Source of the DNA: an uncultured archaeon | GTDB lineage: Archaea > Aenigmatarchaeota > Aenigmatarchaeia > CG10238-14 | Reading direction: 5' to 3' | NCBI GenBank assembly: GCA_964392445.1 | Contig: CAYMPD010000001.1 | Location: forward strand, 46,698-110,697 | Length of the DNA stretch: 64,000 bases | Shown: one piece after another, positions 4,243 to 32,928 of the stretch | How the letters are laid out: each line of letters starts with the position of its first letter | Numbering within the stretch: the stretch's first letter is position 1 | Position numbers and translations under genes: made by a program | Notes under the pieces: generated by a model | The model's database searches: none | Told to the model about the DNA's origin: nothing | The model's input: only the letters and a program-made list of their open reading frames with translations

Positions 4243-5646
4243 TTATGTAAATGGATCATCCAAATCAGGGGACTCTTCGAAAAGAAATAATCCACTCTTT
4301 TTATCCATCCAAACATTTCGGTATTTATTCGTTCCTAATATTTGTCTGAACAGGGTAGTAGAGGCAACTCTAAACCCTCTTCTAAGATTAACAGGTGGTA
4401 AAATGAATCCATTACCAACTACCGAAAATGGCTCTAATGTAGATACATTATCACCTTCGCGCTCAACAAAAGAACTATAGCCAATAACCGCAGCTTCCAT
4501 CCTACCACCAAAAACACCGGAATTGTTCAAAATAACTGAAGGATATAATATATCATCATCTCTTAATCCAGTAATTTCAGTATCTTGACCTATAGAAACT
4601 CCATGGCCTATAATTGAATTGCTTATGTAGATATCTCCATCACCTCTCCCAGGATTAAAATCTGATCCTATCAGAACATGGCCACCAAATTGGATTTTAG
4701 CTCTCTCTACCTCTTCTAATGATTTTTCGTGAACTAAAACTCTCCCAGACGAAGTATCAAGTCTTTCATAATCATCAAAATCCAACCAATCATAATCACC
4801 AGTAATCGCTTTACCATTAGCACGTAAATAAGCCTTGATAGTTCCAAAGTCCTCCCAATCTTCAATCCTTCCTACCCCTTGTTGCCTTTGACCATAAGCA
4901 TACATTGAAACACCCTGATCAAGGAAATAAGGGAATATATCTCCTCCCATATCATCAAGTTTTACTCCATCCTCAATACCCTCTTCTAATATGTCTAAAA
5001 TAGTTGGAGAGAACATTACAATAGCTGTATTTATATAATCTGATGCGGGATCGGGTGATTTTTCTCTGAAATCCAATATACGGCCAGATTCATCGAATTT
5101 AACTGTTCCAAATTGATCTATCCCTGGCATTGAACCCCAATAAGTTACGCCTATGGTTACTCCTGGTGCATCTTCGTGTACTCTTTGATGGTATTTAGCC
5201 ATATCAATTGGATCAAAATTTGCAAAATTATCAGCATTTAATACCAGAATCAAATTATCCTGGATTTTTTCTCTATTGTTTCTTAAAAAATGGATAAAAG
5301 CGTCACCACTGCCTTCTGTTACACTTCTTCTCTCAAGAGATTTTTCTGGATCATAATAAGTTGAATATCTAATAGATAAATTATCTGCAATATTTCTACC
5401 GTCCTTCAAATCAGCAGGTACAAAAATATCATTAGCTAATCCATGTGTTGTAATATAACCTCTAAGTTCCTCCTGGTGATCCTGGAGAGATAGATATAAC
5501 ATTTCAACTACAGCCCTTAAGGGTGTTCTATTAGCTATATCTAACCAACCCTTTGATATTCCCATCTCAACTCCACCTATGGTCAGAGGATATAATCTAG
5601 TAGCTTCTCCACCTACAGGCACATAAAATACTAATTCTTTAAGCAT
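4243..5646 (-). CDS. Sugar-1-phosphate nucleotidyltransferase (GlgC/RmlA-like) with C-terminal left-handed beta-helix
   Basis: 467 aa; N-terminal GGEATRLYPLT (G-x-G-T-R-L-x-P-L-T pyrophosphorylase signature); Gly/Ile-rich hexapeptide-like C-terminal region. Confidence 0.7.
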   Translation of the reverse strand: MLKELVFYVPVGGEATRLYPLTIGGVEMGISKGWLDIANRTPLRAVVEMLYLSLQDHQEELRGYITTHGLANDIFVPADLKDGRNIADNLSIRYSTYYDPEKSLERRSVTEGSGDAFIHFLRNNREKIQDNLILVLNADNFANFDPIDMAKYHQRVHEDAPGVTIGVTYWGSMPGIDQFGTVKFDESGRILDFREKSPDPASDYINTAIVMFSPTILDILEEGIEDGVKLDDMGGDIFPYFLDQGVSMYAYGQRQQGVGRIEDWEDFGTIKAYLRANGKAITGDYDWLDFDDYERLDTSSGRVLVHEKSLEEVERAKIQFGGHVLIGSDFNPGRGDGDIYISNSIIGHGVSIGQDTEITGLRDDDILYPSVILNNSGVFGGRMEAAVIGYSSFVEREGDNVSTLEPFSVVGNGFILPPVNLRRGFRVASTTLFRQILGTNKYRNVWMDKKSGLFLFEESPDLDDPFT

Positions 5647-7605: not shown

Positions 7606-8028
7606 ATGCCACAAAAACAATTACAAGAAAAAATGCTTCAGTATCAGACTCTAGAAGAAACACTCAAACAATTGAATGAACGTCGAGAGTTATTTGGAAA
7701 TAGATTAATGGAAATAGATCAAACCAAACAAGCAATTCAAGAAGTAGAAAAATCAAAAGAAGATGATGTTTTTGTTCCTCTGGGATCAAGTGTGTTCTTA
7801 CCAGGAAAATTAAATAAAAAAGAAAAGATGATTGTAGGTTTAGGAGCAGATGTTGCATTAGAAAAGGATCCCGATGAGGTTAGAAAGATACTCGATGAAA
7901 GGAAAAAAATACTTGAAAAAGGAATTGAAGACTTGCAAAATAAAATGATTGAAGTTGTAGGTCAAATAAGAGAACTAGAACCAGAAATCCAAAAATTACT
8001 CTCAGAATCACAATTAAAAACGGGTTAA
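7606..8028 (+). CDS. pfdA: Prefoldin alpha subunit
   Basis: 140 aa; two coiled-coil segments flanking a central beta-hairpin region (VFVPLGSSVFLPGKL); conserved archaeal neighbourhood immediately upstream of ftsY. Confidence 0.75.
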   Translation: MPQKQLQEKMLQYQTLEETLKQLNERRELFGNRLMEIDQTKQAIQEVEKSKEDDVFVPLGSSVFLPGKLNKKEKMIVGLGADVALEKDPDEVRKILDERKKILEKGIEDLQNKMIEVVGQIRELEPEIQKLLSESQLKTG

Positions 8029-8031
8029 AGT

Positions 8032-8952
8032 ATGTTTGGTATTCTGAAAAAGAAATTACAAAACGTAGTTCAATCAGTGACAAAGACTGCGGAAAAGGCC
8101 CCAAAGAAAATTATTAAAAAAAAGATTTCCGAAAAAGATTTATCGCAAGTTCTGGAAGATTTAGAACTGAGTTTACTCCAGGCGGATGTAGCTTTTGAAG
8201 TTTCTGAAAAGATAAAAAAAGACCTTAAAGATGCTCTAGTCGGAAAGCAGGTTAAAAGGGGAAAAGTAAAGAAAATAGTGGAAAAAACTATTAGAAAGAG
8301 TTTACTTGAAATCTTGGATGTCCCTAAACTTGATCTGGAAAAGAAAATTAAAGGAAATAAACCTTACCTTGTTTTGTTTCTAGGATTTAATGGTTCAGGG
8401 AAGACTACTACACTCGCTAAAATTGGTCATAGATTAAAAAAGAAGGGGTATTCATGTGTATTTGCGGCCGGAGATTCTTTTAGGGCAGCGGCAATAGAAC
8501 AATTAGAAGAGCACGGAGAGAAATTAGGGATAAAAACAATCAAACATAAGATGGGGGCAGACTCTGCGGCAGTTATTTACGATGCAGTTGAACATGCTAA
8601 ATCAAAGGGAATAGATGTTGTTCTTGCTGACAGTGCGGGAAGAATGCATACCAATCAAAATCTTATGGATGAACTCAAAAAAATAGTTAGAGTTAATAAA
8701 CCTGATTTGAAAATACTTGTTATTGATTCTTTAACTGGGAATGATGCTATTGAGCAGGCTAAGAGATTTGATGAGGTTGTCGGGATTGATGGGGCAATTT
8801 TGACTAAGGTTGATGTTAATCCTAAGGGCGGTGCTATACTTAGTGTTTGTAAGATTCTTGGTAAACCTGTTGTTGGACTGGGTATGGGTCAGAATTATGA
8901 GGACTTGAAAAAGTTTGATAGAGAAGAGTTTGTTGGGAATTTGTTGGGTTAA
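8032..8952 (+). CDS. ftsY: Signal recognition particle receptor FtsY
   Basis: 306 aa; SRP GTPase NG domain: GFNGSGKTTT (G1), DSAGRMH (G3), TKVD (G4). Confidence 0.9.
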   Translation: MFGILKKKLQNVVQSVTKTAEKAPKKIIKKKISEKDLSQVLEDLELSLLQADVAFEVSEKIKKDLKDALVGKQVKRGKVKKIVEKTIRKSLLEILDVPKLDLEKKIKGNKPYLVLFLGFNGSGKTTTLAKIGHRLKKKGYSCVFAAGDSFRAAAIEQLEEHGEKLGIKTIKHKMGADSAAVIYDAVEHAKSKGIDVVLADSAGRMHTNQNLMDELKKIVRVNKPDLKILVIDSLTGNDAIEQAKRFDEVVGIDGAILTKVDVNPKGGAILSVCKILGKPVVGLGMGQNYEDLKKFDREEFVGNLLG

Positions 8953-11900: not shown

Positions 11901-12186
11901 AATGACACATAAAGCAAGAGGACCAAGGAGCAAAACAAGAAAATTGCTAAGGAGAGGTATTAGGGATAAAACTAGTGTTAATAAGAGACTCAAAGAATTC
12001 AAGATAGGTTCCAAAGTGGTGATTAAACCAGACCCTTCTATAAGTAAAGGAAGACCATTTAAAAGATTCTATGGCAAAGCAGGAGTAGTTACCGATAAAA
12101 GGGGAAGATCCTATATAATTAAAATAAAAGATGGTGGAAAGGAAAAAGAAATAATAACCCCTCCAGTTCATCTAAAAGGTGTTTAA
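11893..12186 (+). CDS. rpl21e: 50S ribosomal protein L21e
   Basis: 97 aa; KARGPRSKTRKLL N-terminus and FKRFYGKAGVV motif characteristic of L21e. Confidence 0.85.
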   Translation: MIEMTHKARGPRSKTRKLLRRGIRDKTSVNKRLKEFKIGSKVVIKPDPSISKGRPFKRFYGKAGVVTDKRGRSYIIKIKDGGKEKEIITPPVHLKGV

Positions 12187-12519
12187 ATGCAAGAAATAGT
12201 TACAGAAAAAATAATTACAAATACAAGAGCAAAGGAAATACTGAAAAAGAGAGATAAAGAAATAGAACTGGGTTATGATCAAAAAAACTCACTGGATTAT
12301 CTGAAGAAATACGATCAATTGACCAAAACAAAAGCAAAAAAAATGATGGAAGAACTGAGTGAGAAGATCCCAAAATTAAGAAACAGACAGATAATATCAA
12401 TTGTAAATGTTCTACCTCAAGATTTGGATGATCTAAGAGTAGTTATGGAAAAAAATTACACTAGTTTAGATGAAGATGAAAAGAAACTTATTCTTAAAAC
12501 TGTAAAAGATAATATGTAA
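12187..12519 (+). CDS. rpoF: DNA-directed RNA polymerase subunit F (Rpo4)
   Basis: 110 aa; size and position in the conserved archaeal L21e-rpoF-DUF655 cluster; helical Rpb4-like profile. Confidence 0.6.
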   Translation: MQEIVTEKIITNTRAKEILKKRDKEIELGYDQKNSLDYLKKYDQLTKTKAKKMMEELSEKIPKLRNRQIISIVNVLPQDLDDLRVVMEKNYTSLDEDEKKLILKTVKDNM

Positions 12520-12526
12520 GGAGAGG

Positions 12527-13069
12527 GTGATTCTGATGAAAGATGAATATGTAGTAGTGCTAGATTTCTTAGCCAGAGGTCACTCTCACAGTCGAAAGTC
12601 AGAACCTGTTGCTCAAGGCGTAGGAGAGAAGTTCTTAAACCTTCTAGAAGTGGTTATAAAAGATGGTGTTGAAGTAAAAAGTGGGGATAGATTGTACATT
12701 GGTGAAAAGGAAAGGGACAAAGTCAAGTATATCAAAGGAAGGATGAAATACGATGAATTAACAAGTTATGCGAAAAAGGAATTAGAGTATGTTCTTGAAA
12801 AAATAATTGAAGATCATGAGGAGAATTTTGTGAAATTCTTTAACAAGGCTAGACCCGTTTCTACGAGATTACATAGTCTAGAATTACTTCAGGGTATAGG
12901 AAAAAAGCATATGTGGGCGATAATTAGGGGGAGAAGAAGGAAGAAATTTGAAAGTTTGAAAGAATTGAAGGATAGGGTTGATATGCTACCTGAACCCAAA
13001 AGAATGATCAAGAAAAGAATTATTGATGAACTGAAAGGGAAAGATAGGCATAAATTGTTCGTGAGATAG
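12527..13069 (+). CDS. DUF655-family protein (HhH-containing, RNA-polymerase-associated cluster)
   Basis: 180 aa; N-terminal EYVVVLDFLARG segment typical of DUF655; conserved position after rpoF. Confidence 0.6.
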   Translation: MILMKDEYVVVLDFLARGHSHSRKSEPVAQGVGEKFLNLLEVVIKDGVEVKSGDRLYIGEKERDKVKYIKGRMKYDELTSYAKKELEYVLEKIIEDHEENFVKFFNKARPVSTRLHSLELLQGIGKKHMWAIIRGRRRKKFESLKELKDRVDMLPEPKRMIKKRIIDELKGKDRHKLFVR

Positions 13070-13333
13070 TTACCAACTTCTAGCAACATTAGTTACTTCT
13101 ACTTCTTTAACACCAGAAATTGATCTTATTTGCTTTTCTACTCTTTCCATTTCTCCGTCTTTTTCCGGGATTACTTTAACTATTACTAATGATTTGAGCC
13201 CAAATGCTATTGGGATTATTTGTGACTTGGATGGGTTGACTTTTTCTTTTACTTTTTCTTGAAGTGCTTCCATATCTGTTTCTACGCCCTCAGGCATGAT
13301 TTTGAATGTTACCATAACTGATCCTTCACCCAT
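13070..13333 (-). CDS. ef1b: Elongation factor 1-beta
   Basis: 87 aa; MGEGSVMVTFKIMPEGVE N-terminus and overall aEF-1beta size/fold pattern. Confidence 0.85.
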   Translation of the reverse strand: MGEGSVMVTFKIMPEGVETDMEALQEKVKEKVNPSKSQIIPIAFGLKSLVIVKVIPEKDGEMERVEKQIRSISGVKEVEVTNVARSW

Positions 13334-22597: not shown

Positions 22598-22610
22598 AAA
22601 AGTGAGAGTT
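22598..22610 (+). repeat. AAAGTGAGAGTTA motif copy 1
   Basis: Exact 13-mer, 80 nt upstream of gene 22691; starts a short GTG-initiated MRVK... reading frame. Confidence 0.6.
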
Positions 22611-22690: not shown

Positions 22691-23116
22691 ATGAAAATTC
22701 CTGAAAGTGTTGGCTGGGATAGAATAAACGAAGGATTGAAAAAACTAGATGTAGTTGGGATAAACCATTTCAGTCTTGGGTTACCTAAGGAAAGTGAGGG
22801 AACAAATCCTGAAAAGGTAGAACTTTTCTTCGAGGAAATGGGAAAAATTATTGGAATAGAGAATCCTAAAGAGGTGAAATCGACTGAGTGGTTCATCTAC
22901 CCTGATGGTAAAACTCCAGGATATGAGCATCTACTTTGGCCTGGTAAAAAAGTTTTTTATCATATTGAAATCGATGTTAAGGATTCTAATGAAAGAATAA
23001 TGGAGGTTTTTCCTGAAGCATTTGAAGAAAGGCCCGGAATGTTTTGGTTAACAGTAGATAAGGGTTTCTTGGGAATACTGTGGGCGGTCATTATAACTAA
23101 CAAGAGAGAAAAGTGA
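22691..23116 (+). CDS. hypothetical protein
   Basis: 141-aa ORF; preceded 80 nt upstream by AAAGTGAGAGTTA motif. Confidence 0.4.
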   Translation: MKIPESVGWDRINEGLKKLDVVGINHFSLGLPKESEGTNPEKVELFFEEMGKIIGIENPKEVKSTEWFIYPDGKTPGYEHLLWPGKKVFYHIEIDVKDSNERIMEVFPEAFEERPGMFWLTVDKGFLGILWAVIITNKREK

Positions 23117-23120
23117 GGGT

Positions 23121-23498
23121 ATGAAGCTAATAAACAAGACCAAAAATAAAGTAATCGCAACAAAAATAATAGTAAGGAAGAGCAGGATAGGGTTAATGTT
23201 AGGACTGATCCCATACAAAACCAAAAACGAATACATCTACGATTATTTGAAGTTCAAAAAGTTCGGTAGAAAAGATGCTATGCTATTCAAAGTGAGAGGT
23301 AAAGGTGGGATTCATACATGGTTTATGAGTTTTCCGATAAGTGTTTTCTTCCTGGATAAGGATATGAAAGTAATTGATAAGGTTCAACTATATCCTTTTG
23401 AGAGATATAAACCAAAGAAAAGATATGAGTGTTTTGTTGAATTGGATGGTTCCTGGATAAATAAGATAAGGATTGGAGAGGAATTAGAACTAAAGTGA
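23121..23498 (+). CDS. DUF192-family protein
   Basis: 125 aa; IHTWFMSFPISVFFLD...ELDGSW matches DUF192 (COG1430) pattern. Confidence 0.55.
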   Translation: MKLINKTKNKVIATKIIVRKSRIGLMLGLIPYKTKNEYIYDYLKFKKFGRKDAMLFKVRGKGGIHTWFMSFPISVFFLDKDMKVIDKVQLYPFERYKPKKRYECFVELDGSWINKIRIGEELELK

Positions 23499-24976: not shown

Positions 24977-24989
24977 AAAGTGAGAGTTA
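24977..24989 (+). repeat. AAAGTGAGAGTTA motif copy 4
   Basis: Exact 13-mer; GTG within it opens a 33-codon hydrophobic ORF (MRVKLTILDLIIASIGLILLGLGYIDQCNCVSI) upstream of the ATP-grasp cassette. Confidence 0.6.
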
Positions 24990-25103
24990 AACTAACAATT
25001 TTAGATTTAATTATTGCCTCTATAGGTCTTATTTTATTAGGACTAGGATATATAGACCAATGTAATTGTGTGAGTATTTGATCAGGTGATAGACTGAAGG
25101 AAC

Positions 25104-25125
25104 CCAGATAGATTCCTTTTCAGGT
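25104..25125 (+). repeat. 22-nt direct repeat, left copy (CCAGATAGATTCCTTTTCAGGT)
   Basis: 20/22 identity with 27792-27813; the two copies bracket the ATP-grasp/amidohydrolase three-gene cassette. Confidence 0.6.
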
Positions 25126-25199: not shown

Positions 25200-26081
25200 A
25201 TGAAAATTGTTATTTTAGGCTCCCCAGAAAGGAGAAAAAAAGACTTAGAACTCCTGAAAGACGCAAAAGGGGTTTTTGATAAAGCTTTATATGTTTCAAT
25301 AGATTCCGTTAAGTTGGAGGTATCAGACGAAATGAAAGTATCCTTCGAAAAGACTGATCTTTCAGATTTCGACGTAATTCTCCCTGTGCCCACATATGAA
25401 CACAAAGAAACCTATTATATGTGTCTGAAAATTCTTGAAAAAAGTTGTTATGTTCCATACAAGAGCGATGATTTCTTTTTACTCTGGAACAAACCACTTT
25501 TAATAAAGAAACTTCAAGAGAGTGATATTAACGTGAGGAAAACAGTTGTAGTCGCATCTAATTATATACCCGAAAATGCTGTAAAAGAATTGAAATTGCC
25601 TATCATTGTTAATTCATATAAGGGGAAAGTTTTGGTCACCGACAAAAATACCCTTAAGGATGTTATGGATTTATTTAAAAAAGGTATAATGAATAGACTT
25701 GAGAAGCCTATATCGGCTAATAAGAGTATCTGGTGCTTTATTGTCGGTGACGAAGTTATTGGTTGTTATGAAAAAGTAGGTGATGAGAGAAAAAGAATGA
25801 CTAAAGCCAGTTCGGATATTACTAAATTATCTAAAAGGATAAAATCCATTGTCAATACTGATTTCTGCATAATTAATTTCCTAGAAACTAAAGACAAAAT
25901 AATCGTAAAAAATATTAGTGTGACACCAGATTTCCCGTTGTTTGAAAAAATCACAGGTAAAAACCTAGGCTTGAGTTTACTAATTTATGTTAAAAGCCAG
26001 ATTGAAGAAGAAAAACTTCCTTTTATAACGAAATTCATAATAGACGTTATGGATTTATTGAAAAGGTTGGTGAAACAATGA
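25200..26081 (+). CDS. ATP-grasp (RimK-like) paralog, probably catalytically degenerate
   Basis: 293 aa; N-terminus and domain order parallel the downstream RimK-like gene (MKIVILG..LSDFDVILP) but lacks the Gly-rich ATP loop; 4-nt overlap with next gene. Confidence 0.5.
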   Translation: MKIVILGSPERRKKDLELLKDAKGVFDKALYVSIDSVKLEVSDEMKVSFEKTDLSDFDVILPVPTYEHKETYYMCLKILEKSCYVPYKSDDFFLLWNKPLLIKKLQESDINVRKTVVVASNYIPENAVKELKLPIIVNSYKGKVLVTDKNTLKDVMDLFKKGIMNRLEKPISANKSIWCFIVGDEVIGCYEKVGDERKRMTKASSDITKLSKRIKSIVNTDFCIINFLETKDKIIVKNISVTPDFPLFEKITGKNLGLSLLIYVKSQIEEEKLPFITKFIIDVMDLLKRLVKQ

Positions 26082-26944
26082 AAATAGCGATATTGGGTAA
26101 AGTAAAAAGGAGTTACGAAGAAATAAAGATCATAAAAGAAGCGAAGAAAGTTTTTAACTCTGTTTTATATTTACCTATACCAGAAGCGAGGATAGAGATA
26201 AATTCCGACTTCAGTGTTAAATTTAAGAACGAAGATTTGTCGGACTTTGACTGTATATTACCAAGGATTCCCCGAAGTTATAGGACATATGGATTCACGT
26301 TATTGTCAGCTCTTAAAGGCAAAACATTTGTGCCAATAGAGCCAATGTCCTTGTTCAACTGTCATAATAAATTCCTAACCCTCATGATACTGAATGAAGA
26401 GGGTTTACCTGTACCTAAAACATTACTATCCGAAAAGAGAAAAATCATCGAGGATTCCTTGGATGAAATAGGTTATCCAGTTGTAATGAAACTTCTCTAC
26501 GGTTCCATGGGGAAAGGTGTAATGTTTGCAGACGGCAAACAATCTGCTATAAGTTTCATGGACACACTTGAAAGATTCGACGAACCAATTTTCGTCGAGG
26601 AATTTGTTCCAAATAATGGAGAGGATATTAGAATTTACATGGTAGATCATGAACCCATTGCTTGTATGAAGAGAGTGGCAAAAGAAGGGGAAAAAAGGTC
26701 TAATATTGGGATTGGGGGAAAAGGGGAAAAGTACATATTGCCTGAAAAATACGAAGATCTGGTCCACAGTGCATCCAAGTCACTTGAAGCCAGGATTTGT
26801 GGCTTGGATTTGATGGAATCCAAGAAAGGACCCGTTTTTATTGAAGCTAATATCAACGCCCAATTCAAGGGACTAGAAGAAGCTACCAAAATCAACGTTG
26901 CAAAAATTATAATAGAATTTATGAAGAGCTGTGTGAAAGAGTGA
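26078..26944 (+). CDS. RimK/LysX-family ATP-grasp ligase (alpha-L-glutamate ligase-like)
   Basis: 288 aa; GYPVVMKLLYGSMGKGVMF (Lys + Gly loop), EEFVPNNGEDIRIYMVD, GLDLMESKKGPVFIEANINAQF (catalytic E-x-N). Confidence 0.8.
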   Translation: MKIAILGKVKRSYEEIKIIKEAKKVFNSVLYLPIPEARIEINSDFSVKFKNEDLSDFDCILPRIPRSYRTYGFTLLSALKGKTFVPIEPMSLFNCHNKFLTLMILNEEGLPVPKTLLSEKRKIIEDSLDEIGYPVVMKLLYGSMGKGVMFADGKQSAISFMDTLERFDEPIFVEEFVPNNGEDIRIYMVDHEPIACMKRVAKEGEKRSNIGIGGKGEKYILPEKYEDLVHSASKSLEARICGLDLMESKKGPVFIEANINAQFKGLEEATKINVAKIIIEFMKSCVKE

Positions 26945-26948
26945 AAGA

Positions 26949-27785
26949 ATGGATTTTCTTAGATTTAGTGACTTAAAATCAATGGATAGTTTTCTAGAGG
27001 AGATTAGTGTCAAAAGAGAAGACAAAATGGAGTATTACAAATTTAGCAAGTTCGAGGAGAACAGAATTCTTTTTACAGCCGAGCACAGCAAAATCGTGAA
27101 ATTTCAGACCTCTAAATTCCCAAGACCCAATTGTATCGAATTAGGTGATAGAAATACTGACAAAATCGCTAAACTGATGTCCTACAAACTTAAATCTGGG
27201 TATCTTATTTTCGGGTACCCGAGAACGGAAGTTGATGCATCAAGATCTTTCAGAACTTTGGGTGGAGATGAAAAAATAAAGGCTGCAGTTACAAGAAAAA
27301 AAGAATTATTAGGAAAAGTGGATGTAAAGATACACCAAAATGAGAAATATTTGTCAAACCTTCAGAAATACCATTCTATAGTTGAAAAATCGAACCCTAA
27401 GATAATAGCGTCCATCCATGGTATACAGAGGAGACACAAAAATGATGTAGTTTTTGGGTTAGGTGAGAATTCTGAGTATGTGGGTGGGGCGAAGGAAGAG
27501 AAAAGGTTAATGAATATACTCGAAAAAAATCTTGAAGAAAATGGTCAATCAGACTTGAAATTCAGAGTTTCAAAAAAATATTATACTGGTAAAAGGAATT
27601 TTGTTTTACATCGAAATATCCTCGAGTTCAATAGAAGTAATCCAGAAAAAAGGTACGGCATGCAGATAGAATTTAATAGGAGAACCAGAGTGGGAGATAA
27701 ATCCAAAGAGTTCATAAAAAAGAAATATCAAATTGTATGTCAAATAATAGCGGATTCAATTTTAGAGTGGGGAAAACCTAAATGA
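26949..27785 (+). CDS. putative creatininase/ArfB-family-like amidohydrolase (tentative)
   Basis: 278 aa; FTAEHS, GDRNTDKIAKL, IIASIHGIQRRHKN segments resemble creatininase-family metal ligands (EQHG / TD..IA / NGHxxN) from memory; cannot be confirmed without a profile search. Confidence 0.4.
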   Translation: MDFLRFSDLKSMDSFLEEISVKREDKMEYYKFSKFEENRILFTAEHSKIVKFQTSKFPRPNCIELGDRNTDKIAKLMSYKLKSGYLIFGYPRTEVDASRSFRTLGGDEKIKAAVTRKKELLGKVDVKIHQNEKYLSNLQKYHSIVEKSNPKIIASIHGIQRRHKNDVVFGLGENSEYVGGAKEEKRLMNILEKNLEENGQSDLKFRVSKKYYTGKRNFVLHRNILEFNRSNPEKRYGMQIEFNRRTRVGDKSKEFIKKKYQIVCQIIADSILEWGKPK

Positions 27786-27791
27786 GTCGAT

Positions 27792-27813
27792 CCAAATAGA
27801 TTCCTATTCAGGT
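27792..27813 (+). repeat. 22-nt direct repeat, right copy (CCAAATAGATTCCTATTCAGGT)
   Basis: 20/22 identity with 25104-25125; 7 nt downstream of cassette's last stop codon; further weak similarity extends about 40 nt (GGGATT-AT...). Confidence 0.6.
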
Positions 27814-27908: not shown

Positions 27909-27921
27909 AAAGTGAGAGTTA
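27909..27921 (+). repeat. AAAGTGAGAGTTA motif copy 5
   Basis: Exact 13-mer 50 nt upstream of ndk. Confidence 0.6.
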
Positions 27922-27970
27922 AATACAAAAAATTTAACTGATAAAACCAAATTAATTCAGAGGTGAGTTC

Positions 27971-28567
27971 ATGGGAGATGTATGGCAAAGGACATTATTT
28001 ATGGTTAAACCTGATGGTGTTAAAAGAGGGTTAGTGGGAGAGTGTTTTAGAAGAGCAGAGAACGCTGGATTAAGTGTTATAGCAATGAAAATGATCCATC
28101 CAACAAGAGAACAGGCGGATAGACATTATCCAAGTGAGGAAGATGATAAAGACTGGTTCCTAAAGGTAGCCGAGAAAGGAAGAAAAGGATACGAGAAAAG
28201 AGGTTTAGAATTTCCTTACGATGATATGGAATATGCCAGAAACATCAAAAAATGGTTAGTTGATTACTTATCTTCTGGTCCTGTTGTTGCTTCGGTTTTA
28301 GAAGGTCCAAATGCGATTAGTATGGTTAGGAAGATTTGTGGAGCAACGGAGCCTGCTCAAGCGGAAATAGGTACAATAAGGGGAGATTTCTCGGTTGATA
28401 GTTACAAACTGGCAAATAAACTAGAAAGACCACTCAAGAACATAGTTCATGCAGCATCCAGTCCTAAAGACGCGGAGAAAGAGATTAAAGTTTGGTTTAG
28501 TGAAGATGAAATAATGGAATATAAGAGAGCGGAAGAAGGTGTGATGTTCGATCCAATCGAAAAGTGA
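27971..28567 (+). CDS. ndk: Nucleoside diphosphate kinase (long form with insertion)
   Basis: 198 aa; TLFMVKPDGV, GTIRGDF, NIVHAAS (catalytic His) motifs; about 45-aa insertion relative to 150-aa NDKs. Confidence 0.85.
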   Translation: MGDVWQRTLFMVKPDGVKRGLVGECFRRAENAGLSVIAMKMIHPTREQADRHYPSEEDDKDWFLKVAEKGRKGYEKRGLEFPYDDMEYARNIKKWLVDYLSSGPVVASVLEGPNAISMVRKICGATEPAQAEIGTIRGDFSVDSYKLANKLERPLKNIVHAASSPKDAEKEIKVWFSEDEIMEYKRAEEGVMFDPIEK

Positions 28568-28631
28568 GACTTCACAGGGTAAAATCCTCGTCACTAGTTA
28601 CAAAAATCCAGACTTAGACGGAACTGCATGT

Positions 28632-29498
28632 ATGGTTGGTTATTCTGAATTGCTTAGAAAGAAAGGTGAGGATGCTAGTCCAGGTTATTTTGGAAATCTT
28701 CAAAGGGAGACTAAGTATCTTCTTAAGAAATTCCGTATCTCTAGACCTAAGAAGGGTGAGGATCTAATCGAAAAGTGTGATAAGGTTGTAGTAGTTGACA
28801 ATGTTAACCCCATTGGTTTATCGGAAAAAATAGACCTTGAAAAGGTCGTGGAAGTTATCGATCACCATTATTCTGAAAAGAGACTTTTGAAAGAATATCC
28901 TAATGCTAAAGGGGAGATAGAAGAGGTTGGAGCGGCAGCAACATTAATAGTTGAAAAGTATATGGAATCTGAAATACCGATCGACAGAGATCCTGCAATC
29001 TTGCTTTACAGTGGCATTATTTCCAATACCTTGAATTTCCAATCAAATACAACAACTGAAAGGGATAAGAAAGCTGCGAAATGGTTGAGAAAGTTAATTG
29101 ATATCCCTAAAACTTTTGCAAGAGATATGTTCGCCTCGAAATCGGATCTAAGTGATAAGAAAATTTATGATGTGTTAACTGGTGATTTGAAAGAACTGAA
29201 AGATGATTCTCTTTATATTGCACAACTAGAGATAATTGATTTAGAAAAAACAGTGAGAGAAGGGAAAGAGGAAATAACCAAAGCGCTCAAGACGATTAAA
29301 AAAGAAAAAAGTGGAAAATATGTCTTCCTAACGGGAATGGATCTCGAGAAAGGATTCAATCTCTTTTTGGTAGTGGATGATAAAAGTAAGGAACTTCTTG
29401 AGAAAGCTCTAAATGTTAAATTTGTTAATAATATAGCCAGGCGAGAAGGATTAATCATGAGAAAGGAAATAATACCAATAATTGAAAAATACTTGTGA
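28632..29498 (+). CDS. DHH-family phosphoesterase (start unresolved; conserved N-terminal motif lies upstream of first ATG)
   Basis: VVVVDNV..EVIDHHYS (DHH motif). The same frame is open from 28545 and encodes KILVTSYKNPDLDGTAC (DHH motif I) with no ATG/GTG/TTG before 28632. Confidence 0.7.
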   Translation: MVGYSELLRKKGEDASPGYFGNLQRETKYLLKKFRISRPKKGEDLIEKCDKVVVVDNVNPIGLSEKIDLEKVVEVIDHHYSEKRLLKEYPNAKGEIEEVGAAATLIVEKYMESEIPIDRDPAILLYSGIISNTLNFQSNTTTERDKKAAKWLRKLIDIPKTFARDMFASKSDLSDKKIYDVLTGDLKELKDDSLYIAQLEIIDLEKTVREGKEEITKALKTIKKEKSGKYVFLTGMDLEKGFNLFLVVDDKSKELLEKALNVKFVNNIARREGLIMRKEIIPIIEKYL

Positions 29499-29511
29499 AA
29501 AGTGAGAGTTA
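29499..29511 (+). repeat. AAAGTGAGAGTTA motif copy 6
   Basis: Exact 13-mer whose last A is the A of the NUDIX ATG; preceded by TGA stop of DHH gene. Confidence 0.6.
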
Positions 29512-29987
29512 TGAAACCAGGTAAAGACTTCATTGGCTTAGGAGTAGGAGCAATAATACAAAACGAAAAGGACCAAGTCCTACTTCTTAAAAGACCAGAT
29601 ACAATAACCCCTGATAGAACAACATCTGGAATGTGGTCAGTTCCTGGGGGTGAAGTTAAGTTTATGGAAAAAGTTGAAGATGCACTCAAACGAGAAGTGA
29701 GAGAAGAGATAGGAGTGGAAGTTGAAATAATTAAACCTATAGAATATCATGATCAGATACTAGATGAATCCCAAGTACACTGGCATTGTCAATCATTTCT
29801 TTGCAAAATTAAAGAGGGTAAACCTGAAATACATGAACCAAGTAAATGTGAGGATTTGAAGTGGTTTGATACTGATATTCTCCCCGAGAAGTGTGGTATA
29901 GCCCATATTGTTGTTCCTCTGTACAAGCTTGGCTGGATTAGTAAGAGTGAGTATGAAAGGAGATTAAGAAACACCCCCGAGAGTTGA
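29511..29987 (+). CDS. NUDIX hydrolase
   Basis: Nudix box GGEVKFMEKVEDALKREVREEIGVEVE; ATG at 29511 is immediately preceded by AAAGTGAGAGTT (track used in-motif GTG 29502). Confidence 0.8.
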   Translation: MKPGKDFIGLGVGAIIQNEKDQVLLLKRPDTITPDRTTSGMWSVPGGEVKFMEKVEDALKREVREEIGVEVEIIKPIEYHDQILDESQVHWHCQSFLCKIKEGKPEIHEPSKCEDLKWFDTDILPEKCGIAHIVVPLYKLGWISKSEYERRLRNTPES

Positions 29988-30526
29988 TTAGTATGGATAT
30001 AGAAATTTTCAAGAAAAATAAAAAGTCTCTCCTAGTCATGGGAATTGGTATTATAATAGGGATGATCGGGCTTTTTCTGTTCCCAACTTTTCTAATCTTT
30101 ACTATTTTTCTTGTAGGTACTGGAATCTTAAACTTCGTACAGAGTAGGATGGAACTTCCATTTGACCTGACACCCTCCTTAGCTATCTTGATTCTCTTCT
30201 CGATAAAATTAGGATTTCTTGAGGGGATGATATTTCTGATATTGGGTTCTATAATACCCGGGATACTGGGAGGGGGATTTAATCACATGACTTTATTTTT
30301 CTTCCTTTTAGCTATGGGTATAAGTTATCTGGGATCATCATCTTTAATTGGGGACTTGAGAATCTATGGTATTGTCCTTATTGTGATTCAAGGCGTCTTT
30401 AGTTATCTAATCATAAAGCTCTTTTCGGTTGATCCTACGGATATTTTATCTGTTTTTCTAGGGTTCTTTGTAAACATTAGTTATTTTTTAGTTTTAAGTG
30501 AGTTAATAGCGAGCGTATTGGTTTGA
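29984..30526 (+). CDS. polytopic membrane protein
   Basis: 180 aa, 5-6 predicted TM helices; 4-nt overlap with NUDIX gene. Confidence 0.5.
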   Translation: MISMDIEIFKKNKKSLLVMGIGIIIGMIGLFLFPTFLIFTIFLVGTGILNFVQSRMELPFDLTPSLAILILFSIKLGFLEGMIFLILGSIIPGILGGGFNHMTLFFFLLAMGISYLGSSSLIGDLRIYGIVLIVIQGVFSYLIIKLFSVDPTDILSVFLGFFVNISYFLVLSELIASVLV

Positions 30527-30563
30527 ATGATACTTATTTCTTTATTTTCCTAAAAAGTGAGAC

Positions 30564-30749
30564 ATGAGTTATTGGTATTGTTTGGATTGCAGAAAAGTCG
30601 TGGATACTTATATGGATATTTTCAAAGCTTTCTCGCTTTGCTGTAAAGAGTGTGGGAGTACTAGGTTGTTGAAATTGAATAAGATGGATGAGAAAGAGTT
30701 TGATAAATTTGTTGAAGAATTCAAAAGGAAGACTGGGGAGGTTGAGTGA
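30564..30749 (+). CDS. Zn-ribbon protein with acidic C-terminal tail ending in Glu (LysW-like architecture)
   Basis: 61 aa; CLDC...CKEC ribbon then MDEKEFDKFVEEFKRKTGEVE; ATG directly preceded by AAAGTGAGAC. Confidence 0.45.
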   Translation: MSYWYCLDCRKVVDTYMDIFKAFSLCCKECGSTRLLKLNKMDEKEFDKFVEEFKRKTGEVE

Positions 30750-30750
30750 A

Positions 30751-31155
30751 GTGAAGGTTTATGTTGCGTCTAGATTTAATAATCAGCAAAAAGTCAAAGA
30801 AATTTATAGGGAACTGATTGAAAATGGGTTTGAAATAACTGTTGATTGGACCAAACATAAAAAAGTGAAGCCTTATGAAAAGAATCCTAAAATGTCTGAG
30901 AAATATTCAAAGGAAGATATCGAGGGGGTAAAAGATTCTGATATTTTAATTTTGTTGACTACTGAAAACCCTGGTAAAGGCATGTTTGTAGAAATGGGGG
31001 CTGCTATAATAGTAAATATACTTACAGGAAAACCAAAGATTTACATAATTGGAGATTATAATAAACAATCCCTATTTTACTTTCATCCGAACGTTAAGCG
31101 CCTAAACACGATAGAAGATGTTATTGAAGACTTGAAGAAAAGTGAGGTTTCATGA
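30751..31155 (+). CDS. nucleoside 2-deoxyribosyltransferase-like Rossmann protein (tentative)
   Basis: GTG start at 30751 preceded by GGGGAGGTTGA (SD-like); MKVYVASRFNN...ENGFEITVDW resembles NDT-like family N-terminus; track ORF (30688) starts inside upstream gene. Confidence 0.45.
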   Translation: MKVYVASRFNNQQKVKEIYRELIENGFEITVDWTKHKKVKPYEKNPKMSEKYSKEDIEGVKDSDILILLTTENPGKGMFVEMGAAIIVNILTGKPKIYIIGDYNKQSLFYFHPNVKRLNTIEDVIEDLKKSEVS

Positions 31156-31517
31156 CCAAAGAAATGACCTTAAAAGAACTCCAAAAGGTTCAGAAAGAGT
31201 TCGATGAAAAATACTTTAGTAAATACTGGATTGATAAGGAAGATATAGATCAGAAGATTAACTTTCTCAAAGACATGGCCATAGCCTTAACAGGAGAATT
31301 AGGTGAATTCGCAAACATCATCAAAAAAGTGAGTAGGGACAGAAAGAATCTTGGTAAAGAACCTAATAAGGAAAATATCCAGAAACTCAAGGAGGAATTG
31401 ACGGATTGTTTTATTTACCTTATAATCCTATCCAACATACTCGAAATGGACATAGAAAAACAGTATCTAAAGAAGACAAATCTAAATCACAAAAGATTTC
31501 AGAAGTACTTAAAATAG
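31152..31517 (+). CDS. MazG-like nucleotide pyrophosphohydrolase
   Basis: 121 aa; all-alpha EExGE motif LTGELGEFANIIKK and second EELTDCFIYLIIL helix typical of MazG/dimeric dUTPase-like NTP-PPases; start overlaps upstream stop (ATGA). Confidence 0.65.
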   Translation: MTKEMTLKELQKVQKEFDEKYFSKYWIDKEDIDQKINFLKDMAIALTGELGEFANIIKKVSRDRKNLGKEPNKENIQKLKEELTDCFIYLIILSNILEMDIEKQYLKKTNLNHKRFQKYLK

Positions 31518-31535: not shown

Positions 31536-31646
31536 CTACTTACTAAATATCATACTTCCTATTAATGGTATTAGAGCTGCTCCGAAGAGTAAGCCCATTA
31601 CCAATAATGTTCCACCAACTTGAGTGCTGGCAAATTGTAATGACAT
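31536..31646 (-). CDS. possible small hydrophobic protein
   Basis: Own translation: MSLQFASTQVGGTLLVMGLLFGAALIPLIGSMIFSK (36 aa, one TM); below ORF-track cutoff. Confidence 0.2.
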   Translation of the reverse strand: MSLQFASTQVGGTLLVMGLLFGAALIPLIGSMIFSK

Positions 31647-32001: not shown

Positions 32002-32218
32002 ATACGGGACTGAAACGTGCCCCTGGTGTCATAGAGCAAGAGAATTCTTTGAGGAGAATGAGATTAAGTACAAGTACATAGATGTGGGGAAGGACAGAAA
32101 AGCAGCAAAAGAAATGATTGAGAAGACAGGTCAAAGAGGAGTACCAGTGATTGAAATAGATGGGGAATTTATTGTTGGGTTTGATGAGAAAAAGATTAGG
32201 GAGAAGTTAGGTCTGTAA
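31973..32218 (+). CDS. Glutaredoxin-like protein
   Basis: 81 aa; CPWC active site in thioredoxin fold; GGAGGTGA SD upstream. Confidence 0.75.
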   Translation: MMMPKHKVIEYGTETCPWCHRAREFFEENEIKYKYIDVGKDRKAAKEMIEKTGQRGVPVIEIDGEFIVGFDEKKIREKLGL

Positions 32219-32232
32219 AAATATCCTTTATT

Positions 32233-32928
32233 TTAACCTAAAACCCGCCTAAGAATTTTAGAAAGACTATAGCAAAGAAAAGGTTCCACTAATAAATAAC
32301 TTTTTCCAATTTTTCGAACAGCTTTTTTTGTACCCTTTCTTTCACTATTCCCAACGAAAATTACTGGAGTTCCTCTATTAGGTCCCCTTTGCCTTATTCT
32401 TTCTGCAACATAAAACCCAGAAGTCCAGTATAATCTTTGCATATGCATTTTTCTTGCTACATCTAAAGAGAGATTAGGAACGTCCCTTTCTACTAATTCT
32501 GCAATTCTTCTTTGTATTGGCCGGGTATCTGCGTATCTTTCGTTCTCCCTAAAAAGTCTTTTTAATTCTCTCCTTGTTTCTGGAGAAAATTCGCTTGAAT
32601 CCAGTTCGGAGTCTGGCCCAAGAGTTAAAGACATCATTAAAAGATCGAATGGGGGTTCCGCCTTTGGGAAATGTGTTTTTCCGAAAGCATAAGCTTCGAA
32701 AGGGTATACAGTTTCTGATATATCTCCTCCAGATTCTAATTCTGGTTTCCAACAAATTCCCAGAATGATGAGGTCCCAGGGTTCTTTCCATAGTCTTTGA
32801 ACTGTGTCTGGGTACATTGAATAATCCAAGCTAGAATATCTTGATATTGTATTTTTATATTCATCCAACCTTTCTTCATCTCTCAATAAACCTACTTCAT
32901 AGTCTGCCCAAAAGGTTCTAGGGGACAT
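32233..32928 (-). CDS. hypothetical protein
   Basis: 231-aa ORF, comparatively GC-richer codons; no motif recognised. Confidence 0.45.
   Translation of the reverse strand: MSPRTFWADYEVGLLRDEERLDEYKNTISRYSSLDYSMYPDTVQRLWKEPWDLIILGICWKPELESGGDISETVYPFEAYAFGKTHFPKAEPPFDLLMMSLTLGPDSELDSSEFSPETRRELKRLFRENERYADTRPIQRRIAELVERDVPNLSLDVARKMHMQRLYWTSGFYVAERIRQRGPNRGTPVIFVGNSERKGTKKAVRKIGKSYLLVEPFLCYSLSKILRRVLG

Follow-up and report, generated by a model that had tools for sequence, protein, structure and literature searches.

In eukaryotes, modified pyrimidine nucleotides are cleared by a route that comprises DCTPP1 and DNPH1 (Rcl). DCTPP1 converts a nucleoside triphosphate (NTP) into the monophosphate (NMP) and pyrophosphate (PPi), and DNPH1 then splits the NMP into the free base and a sugar phosphate. 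The DNPH1 reference is Fugger et al. (2021), cited in PMC11183266. Here we analyzed a run of seven genes at positions 27971-31517 of a 64,000-nucleotide (nt) stretch of DNA from an uncultured archaeon (contig CAYMPD010000001.1, positions 46,698 to 110,697; the whole stretch is termed the window below), in which the last two genes recall this eukaryotic pair. We lean, if only slightly, towards regarding the run as a compact cluster for the maintenance of the nucleotide pool, combining house-cleaning and salvage, in a genome of Aenigmatarchaeota, a DPANN lineage. No account of such a cluster came up when the literature was searched. The genes and the elements between them are as follows.

27909-27922, plus strand: AAAGTGAGAGTTAA element, a candidate promoter (BRE/TATA-like) or leader; exact 14-mer, 62 nt before the start of the first gene
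27971-28567, plus strand: nucleoside diphosphate kinase (NDK), long archaeal form, 198 amino acids (aa); PF00334
28561-28568, plus strand: AAAGTGAG junction motif, putative ancestral ribosome-binding site of the pyrophosphatase (PPase)-like gene; holds the NDK stop codon TGA (28565-67)
28578-29498, plus strand: DHH + DHHA2 phosphoesterase, divergent and family II pyrophosphatase-like; PF02833, NF003877
29511-29987, plus strand: MutT-type Nudix hydrolase, 158 aa; PF00293; AAAGTGAGAGTT ahead, at 29499
29993-30526, plus strand: polytopic membrane protein, lineage-specific, 177 aa; TTG 29984, in overlap with the stop codon of Nudix, is an alternative start
30527-30563, plus strand: T-rich spacer TTATTTCTTTATTTTCC + AAAAGTGAG ahead of the zinc-ribbon gene; putative terminator/promoter boundary
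30564-30749, plus strand: zinc-ribbon protein, 61 aa, CxxC...CxxC; weak PF09723 match
30751-31155, plus strand: protein of the nucleoside 2-deoxyribosyltransferase (NDT) superfamily, 134 aa, GTG start, accessory gene; PF05014 below threshold, and fold
31152-31517, plus strand: all-alpha MazG-type NTP pyrophosphohydrolase (DCTPP1/RS21-C6-like); its start overlaps the NDT-like stop codon (ATGA)

A preliminary description of this DNA, made from its letters, had proposed seven co-oriented genes with near-abutting or overlapping boundaries, and this layout was confirmed. All seven open reading frames (ORFs) lie on the plus strand, and the gaps between successive genes are, in order, 10 (to the conserved N-terminus of the PPase-like protein), 12, 5, 37, 1, and -4 nt. 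The same description had suspected a DPANN-like organism, in agreement with the loci nearest to the window, which are those of metagenome-assembled genomes (MAGs) of Aenigmatarchaeota. The window is AT-rich (~35% GC) and contains one 5S rRNA and two tRNAs; the 3' end of 16S rRNA is absent from it.

The catalytic motifs of the NDK, Nudix, NDT-like, and MazG proteins are intact. The NDK assignment is secure, as the protein scored 139 bits against PF00334 (cut-off 27) and carries the catalytic His motif NIVHAA at residue 157, in agreement with the pattern NxxH(G/A). It aligned end to end with the NDK of Pyrobaculum aerophilum (1xqi; E 9e-42), including an insertion of ~50 residues; nothing notable differs between the two, and the window gene has its stop codon embedded in the ribosome-binding motif of the gene that follows. 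The Nudix protein scored 72.6 bits against PF00293 (cut-off 21.1) and has a perfect Nudix box (GEVKFMEKVEDALKREVREEIGV, pattern Gx5Ex7REUxEExGU) at residue 47, and its nearest solved structures are MutT/Nudix 4dyw and NUDX1. A more specific identity as the 8-oxo-dGTPase MutT was rejected (TIGR00586 and equivalents, 44.3 bits against a cut-off of 97.9), leaving a generic MutT-like Nudix hydrolase. The MazG-like protein exceeded the cut-offs of both PF08761 (36 bits versus 22.9) and PF03819 (28.1 bits versus 22), bears the acidic motifs ELGE at residue 49 and ELTD at residue 82 (ExxE...ExxD), and matched the DCTPP1/RS21-C6 structures with an E-value of 4e-6. These three calls of the preliminary description were correct.

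The second gene was also recognized correctly as a DHH phosphoesterase. It has a DHHA2 domain by PF02833 (51.7 bits), and the truncated ORF scored 24.8 bits against PF01368. Translated from 28566, it matched the model of the Mn-dependent pyrophosphatase, NF003877, with an E-value of 2e-56 over profile positions 3-305 of 308, and PpaC, the PPase of Bacillus subtilis (1k23), with an E-value of 2e-33 (residues 2-302 to 3-303). The window protein thus shares with PpaC the DHH-DHHA2 domain pair and an alignment over the full length, in which the equivalents of the DxD motif, Asp75, the DHH motif, Lys205, and Arg-Lys295/296 are kept.

From these memberships a scheme of nucleotide-pool maintenance may be drawn. 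The MutT-type Nudix hydrolase and the DCTPP1-like MazG protein would convert non-canonical or surplus (d)NTPs into (d)NMP and PPi, and the DHH-DHHA2 enzyme would clear PPi or a related phosphoanhydride. The NDT-like enzyme would cleave the N-glycosidic bond of a (d)NMP, as do DNPH1 and BcmB, or exchange bases on deoxynucleosides, and NDK would rebalance the NDP and NTP pools. No role is assigned in this scheme to the zinc-ribbon and membrane proteins. By analogy, the pairing of a MazG protein with a putative N-glycosidase mirrors the logic of the eukaryotic DCTPP1/DNPH1 route: gene 7 matches the DCTPP1 structures, gene 6 has the fold of DNPH1, BcmB, and MilB with Tyr and Glu kept, and the two genes overlap at ATGA. 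Unlike the eukaryotic pair, the two are adjacent prokaryotic genes, the NDT-like gene is dispensable and allele-swapped, and the phosphate-binding residues of DNPH1 are not evident in its product. The house-cleaning and salvage reading of the preliminary description is partly supported: the family memberships are shown, and what the enzymes act on, in which sequence they work, and that they are regulated together is inferred.

The loci nearest to the window allow the composition of the cluster to be compared. All seven genes were found in the same order in one MAG (L005), with 55-87% identity, and the other relatives carry partial versions, as listed below.

L064: Nudix - membrane protein - zinc-ribbon - NDT-like - MazG - AbrB - Grx - TrxR - GDH
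L002/3: Nudix ... zinc-ribbon - NDT-like - HIT - MazG - ...
L058: NDK - PPase-like - DUF4405 (minus strand) - zinc-ribbon - NDT-like - MazG
L059/60: NDK - PPase-like - Nudix - DUF4405 (minus strand) - zinc-ribbon - MazG
L061/62/65: NDK - PPase-like - DUF4405 (minus strand) - membrane protein - zinc-ribbon - MazG

Two pairs, NDK with the PPase-like gene and the zinc-ribbon gene with MazG, were constant wherever a locus covers them. The zinc-ribbon gene (cysteines at 6, 9, 26/27, and 30 in the window protein) stands directly ahead of (NDT)-(HIT)-MazG in every relative covering the interval, with 70-92% identity. Conversely, the Nudix gene (absent from L058 and L061/65), the membrane protein, the NDT-like gene, and the HIT gene vary. 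For the membrane protein, no match was found in Pfam, NCBIfam, PHROG, or PADLOC; it had only five homologues, and all of those with a source name or a taxon-assigned locus were of Aenigmatarchaeota. Its predicted structure had seven helices and a mean predicted local distance difference test (pLDDT) of 59, and because of this value the model was neither used nor submitted to a fold search. Conservation in related genomes, which the preliminary description had named as a check, thus holds for the whole order in L005 and in part elsewhere, and the seven genes do not form one conserved module. We regard the cluster as a composite of these two pairs as stable cores and of accessory genes (Nudix, membrane protein, NDT-like, and HIT), which would have been gained, lost, or replaced at the junctions that bear the motif.

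Several points weigh against the reading as a nucleotide-pool cluster. The claim that the products act on nucleotides stood for five of the seven, which belong to families acting on (d)NTPs, (d)NMPs, or pyrophosphate, and failed for the zinc-ribbon and membrane proteins, for which no such link was found. The DHH-DHHA2 protein scored 191 bits against NF003877, below the curated equivalog cut-off of 283, and in the alignment to 1k23 two canonical metal ligands are replaced, His9 by Tyr and Asp149 by Asn. We take the ligand set of family II PPases to be His9, Asp13, Asp15, Asp75, His97, and Asp149 in the numbering of B. subtilis. Although PPi appears from the sequence to be the most likely substrate, the two replacements and the score under the NCBIfam cut-off mean that PPi may not be the substrate after all. 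In L058, L059, L061, and L065, four lineages in all, the cluster is broken up by a DUF4405 gene on the minus strand. The synteny extends to unrelated genes, namely a cyclophilin gene upstream and AbrB-Grx-TrxR-GDH downstream. Finally, one seven-gene operon is unlikely to be ancestral, since the T-rich spacer ahead of the zinc-ribbon gene is conserved.

The last points but one bring up the strongest rival, according to which the locus is a mere syntenic neighbourhood, that is, unrelated housekeeping genes kept together by descent in a small and dense genome without a shared pathway or regulation. As the unrelated neighbours are equally syntenic, conservation among close relatives says little about a functional coupling. 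The splitting by the minus-strand gene fits this rival as well, as does the finding that outside the lineage (L001, L004, L006, L007, and 50 further loci) the PPase-like gene and the NDT-like gene stand beside different genes. On one further contig (P0006), the gene context was unrelated. On the other hand, five of the window's seven genes are nucleotide-acting, and the relatives taken together show six families of this kind. The turnover at this locus has brought in nucleotide hydrolases (NDT-like alleles, HIT, and Nudix) rather than random genes, with L002 having a further such hydrolase, HIT, in the slot between the NDT-like gene and MazG. Because nucleotide hydrolases were repeatedly recruited to the same slots, the functional theme is supported. 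Moreover, the start/stop overlaps (ATGA and a 1-nt gap) suggest translational coupling. We consider mere neighbourhood rather unlikely, though to be taken seriously.

The second rival concerns the NDT-like protein, which the preliminary description had called deoxyribosyltransferase-like pending a profile check of 30751-31155 against PF05014. The GTG at 30751 was confirmed as the start, since the homologues begin with MK(V/I)YVAS. The protein scored 26.6-27.2 bits against PF05014, just below the gathering score of 28.8; nevertheless, PF05014 was its best Pfam family, and 57 of the 81 aligned family members matched it at E<=0.01 (best 2e-10). The family profile was built from eight close homologues and retrieved 5605 representative proteins at E<=1e-3. 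The AlphaFold (AF2) model had a pLDDT of 87, and the top 38 matches of this predicted structure in PDB were all of the NDT superfamily, ranked by E-value as BcmB CMP N-glycosidase, DNPH1, MilB, BlsM, Desulfotalea NDT, and YtoQ. Thus, the placement in the NDT superfamily withstood the profile, family-level, and fold tests, and an unrelated family was not indicated. Tyr4, Asp32-Trp33, and Glu81 are nearly invariant, with Y4 and E81 at least 90% conserved, and of the N-terminal loop YVASRF only the Tyr is conserved. In common with the PF05014 nucleoside 2-deoxyribosyltransferases, the protein has a Rossmann-like fold and a GxxxE(M/L)G motif that holds the catalytic Glu. It differs from them in its own DW(T) motif and MKVYVAS N-terminus, in the score just under the threshold, and in fold matches that favour N-glycosidases over transferases.

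If the protein were instead a true nucleoside 2-deoxyribosyltransferase, it would by base exchange supply deoxynucleosides to an organism lacking de novo synthesis, and the hydrolases of the cluster would merely feed it. This is suggested by PF05014 being the best sequence family, by the PDB sequence matches, which are NDTs albeit weak (E ~0.4), and by Desulfotalea NDT, which had the top TM-score of the fold search (0.70). Nonetheless, nucleotide N-glycosidases (BcmB, DNPH1, and MilB) head the fold matches when these are ranked by E-value, the cluster has neither a nucleoside kinase nor a phosphorylase, and L059 and L061/65 dispense with the NDT-like gene. We therefore regard base-exchange salvage as doubtful.

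The history of the NDT-like gene differs from that of its neighbours. The DNA of the window and that of L064 were 85-97% identical across the region, and only 55-65% identical exactly within 30771-31125, with the breakpoints of the divergence at the junction motifs. At the protein level, the identity between the two was 57% for the NDT-like protein, against 95% for MazG, 92% for the zinc-ribbon protein, 96% for AbrB, and 91% for Nudix. Between L064 and L002 the NDT-like proteins were 86% identical, and the MazG proteins only 79%. The non-synonymous divergence (dN) of the NDT-like gene was 0.30 and its synonymous divergence (dS) was saturated, whereas the flanking genes had dN of 0.015-0.11 and dS of 0.25-0.9. 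The saturation of dS against such flanks indicates that a distant allele has taken the place of the former one, rather than that the gene evolved faster where it stood. Relatives of the NDT-like family with 25-35% identity were present in 16 viral contigs. The gene-precise replacement hints at selection on nucleotide specificity; a link to modified DNA of hosts or viruses would give it a broader interest. A conflict module, in which zinc-ribbon-NDT-like-MazG (with Nudix) excludes or destroys modified or viral nucleotides or depletes nucleotides on infection, would explain this swap in a nearly identical backbone and the presence/absence variation, and could draw on the viral relatives and on weak PADLOC matches (Nudix to PDC-S07, 3e-18; NDT-like to ThsB TIR-like, 1e-3), but we hold it to be improbable, because no known defence architecture was matched in PADLOC and no sensor/effector pairing was seen, the single-protein matches are generic fold-level similarity, the viral relatives are distant even at their closest, and MazG, zinc-ribbon, NDK, and PPase-like genes are conserved like housekeeping genes (dN 0.02-0.06).

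The part of the preliminary description that named the second gene as a nanoRNase/pAp phosphatase has to be withdrawn. Such enzymes, of the NrnA type, carry DHHA1. The C-terminal domain here is DHHA2, not DHHA1, and the protein aligns end to end with a PPase, so that the subfamily was the wrong one; the NrnA model, which has a cut-off of 350 bits, gave only 22.8 (E 3.6e-5). Among the best 120 homologues listed, the ligand changes that set the window protein apart from PpaC are subfamily-wide, with Tyr at the position of His9 in 100 and Asn at that of Asp149 in 109. The C-terminal SRKKQ of PpaC is MRKEI in the window, and most of the 120 have the motif MRK(E/Q)IxP. The homologues are mostly from bacteria of the Candidate Phyla Radiation (CPR) and DPANN archaea. 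Another Aenigmatarchaeota MAG (L007) has a Tyr/Asn-type paralogue and a canonical family II pyrophosphatase within 4 kb (7962-8930 and 12136-13071); the latter bears the motifs GHKNPDTDS ... SRKKQIVP, and a HIT-like gene follows the former. Based on the CPR/DPANN-heavy homologues and the additional canonical PPase in L007, we place the second gene in a distinct paralogous subfamily of DHH-DHHA2 proteins. The locus thereby defines a CPR/DPANN-typical subfamily with altered metal ligands, the substrate of which deserves testing.

The same gene lacks an ordinary start. Its reading frame opens no earlier than 28545, and neither ATG nor GTG nor TTG occurs in it before the ATG at 28632, upstream of which lies the conserved catalytic N-terminus GKILVTSYKNPDLDG with the DxD motif. 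In the public annotation (P0157), the protein has 288 aa and starts at 28632, and as this start lies downstream of GKILVTSYKNPDLDG, the annotated product has no catalytic DxD motif; the gene call is corrected here by restoring the N-terminus that had been left off. The junction reads AAAGTGAGAGT-TTG-AAx in four relatives, in which the PPase start is the TTG 3 nt past the motif. The codon matching this TTG is TTC in L005 and TCA in the window, and a second in-frame TTG seven codons upstream in L005 is TCG in the window. Judging from these alignments, the PPase-like gene has lost its ancestral TTG start and is without a canonical start before the catalytic N-terminus. The 19 codons before Met29 differ between the window and L005 by seven synonymous and no non-synonymous changes (by inspection), and from this we conclude that the segment is translated. 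No fusion of NDK and PPase was found among the best 120 listed homologues (288-337 aa, and one of 352), nor did a metagenome scan find a relative of this junction closer than L005. The start may be a near-cognate ATC at 28584 (or 28551), translation may enter by a +1 shift out of the NDK frame at AAG-TGA-G, or the missing start may reflect errors in the assembly consensus.

Transcription of the cluster would probably yield one or two mRNAs, on which the Shine-Dalgarno-like (A/G)GTGAG junctions would couple the translation of successive genes. Tight spacing and these junctions favour an operon, while the T-rich spacer and the minus-strand insert in the relatives favour two units. The spacer is kept upstream of the zinc-ribbon gene in L005, L058, L059, and L061, whichever gene precedes, and may separate two sub-units as a terminator/promoter boundary. 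The element ahead of NDK occurs 62-63 nt before its ATG in L005, L058, L059, and L061 too, and the distance kept in these five lineages (with the window) suggests that it is a promoter or leader. The NDK leader had no Rfam match, and its fold was not unusual (z 0.22); more generally, no known RNA family or riboswitch was found in 22.4-32.3 kb of the window. A scan for sigma-70 promoters and terminators was set aside as uninformative, the DNA being archaeal. The GTG in the motif ahead of NDK opens a mini-ORF of nine codons (27912-27941, MRVKYKKFN; MRVNYKNFN at 7334-7363 of L005), the length of which is not kept in L058, L059, and L061, so that its conservation is probably at the level of DNA.

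The preliminary description had seen a motif ahead of each gene. The motif, AAAGTGAG, is indeed enriched, with 19 copies in the window against 3.8 expected, a number reached in none of 100 shuffles; 16 of the 19 are on the plus strand within 22.6-35 kb. Exact copies mark four of the seven genes, at the PPase junction (28561) and ahead of Nudix (29499), zinc-ribbon (30554), and MazG (31139). The other three have variants or none: GAGGTGAG at the NDK start (with the exact copy 62 nt upstream, at 27909), GAGTGAAGTG ahead of the NDT-like gene, and only GAGAGTTGA ahead of the membrane protein gene. Exact copies lie 2-5 nt ahead of the ATG of Nudix, zinc-ribbon, MazG, and a gene at 23121, and also at the ancestral PPase start; other operons of the window have GGTGA or AGTGAGG ahead of their starts. 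Often the gene upstream ends in a stop codon that falls within the motif (NDK, 22691-23116, and 23121-23498). At gene starts, AAAGTGAG appears by these positions to behave as a Shine-Dalgarno-type signal.

A longer form, AAAGTGAGAGTTA(A), has six near-exact copies, and 12 at no more than two mismatches against 1.6 expected. Some of these are not beside a start, such as the copy 62 nt before NDK and those between or beside minus-strand genes. This element of 13-14 nt stands at the left edge of gene blocks at 22599, 23492, 24309, 24977, 27909, and 29499 (plus strand) of the window and at 4399, 5254 (a variant), 5940, 6757, and 7331 of L005, and is found in L058, L059, and L061 too. It is always in plus orientation, even by minus-strand genes, whose TAA stop codons overlap its GTTA part. 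The order and content of the blocks vary among the relatives with the element at each junction. Between the window and L005, the cyclophilin block and the block of 72- and 185-aa proteins are swapped; a block of two RimK genes and a 278-aa protein is present in the window and absent from L005, and the other relatives have SdpI, a hydrolase, or a diversity-generating retroelement instead. The position of the element at the junctions of varying blocks suggests a role in boundaries or recombination besides that in expression. A stretch of ~56 nt past one copy (TTTTAGATTTAATTATTGCCTCTATAGGTCTTATTTTATTAGGACTAGGATATATA; 24977-25085 of the window and 6757-6846 of L005) is identical in spite of widely differing coding regions; it can be read as a small hydrophobic ORF from the GTG of the motif (MRVKLTILDLIIASIGLILLGLGYIDQCNCVSI; MRVKLRFLDLIIASIGLILLGLGYIRL in L005), and its neighbours differ between the genomes. 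The 14-mer was not accepted as an integron attC site, for which the repeat is not long enough; moreover, the core sites are wrongly ordered and no integrase was seen.

A bolder proposal, to which we assign a low probability, would unite these features. One element of 8-14 nt, AAAGTGAG(AGTTAA), would act both in expression, as a ribosome-binding or leader signal, and as microhomology for the gain, loss, reordering, and allelic replacement of whole genes. The slot in zinc-ribbon-[NDT-like/HIT]-MazG would be hot-swappable, with distant NDT-like (nucleotide N-glycosidase) alleles exchanged and possibly selected by modified nucleotides of viruses or the host, and the PPase-like gene would be expressed through a near-cognate AUC or an NDK frameshift.

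The surroundings of the cluster showed further features. A minus-strand ORF of 36 hydrophobic residues at 31536-31646 (MSLQFASTQVGGTLLVMGLLFGAALIPLIGSMIFSK) runs towards the MazG gene and delimits the cluster on its 3' side; a TATA-like TTTAAAT lies ~30 nt upstream of it, and the region is 95-98% identical in L064. Another minus-strand ORF, of 231 aa and with no family match (32233-32928), is absent from the collinear L064 (alignment gap 32205-32925), and has the appearance of an insertion specific to the strain, placed between Grx and TrxR. The RimK block mentioned above (25200-27785) consists of two tandem genes for RimK-type ATP-grasp ligases followed by that for the 278-aa protein, which has no family match, and is placed between copies of the motif. 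An 18-nt repeat, ATAGATTCCT(T/A)TTCAGGT, is intergenic upstream of RimK (25108-25125) and of NDK (27796-27813); its two copies in the window were not significant alone (10 of 100 shuffles). The retroelement, at 2783-4181 of L059 between SdpI and NDK, comprises an RVT_1 reverse transcriptase and bAvd.

On the whole, the cluster is fairly ordinary, the noteworthy parts being the repeated element at the junctions, the PPase-like gene without a start, and the NDT-like gene with its swapped allele. Dependence on hosts for nucleotides is generally assumed for DPANN archaea, and the cluster might be linked to such a host-dependent lifestyle, as the preliminary description had supposed. The enzymes retained for policing and recycling the nucleotide pool show how DPANN archaea live, and the locus offers a concrete and testable set of them.

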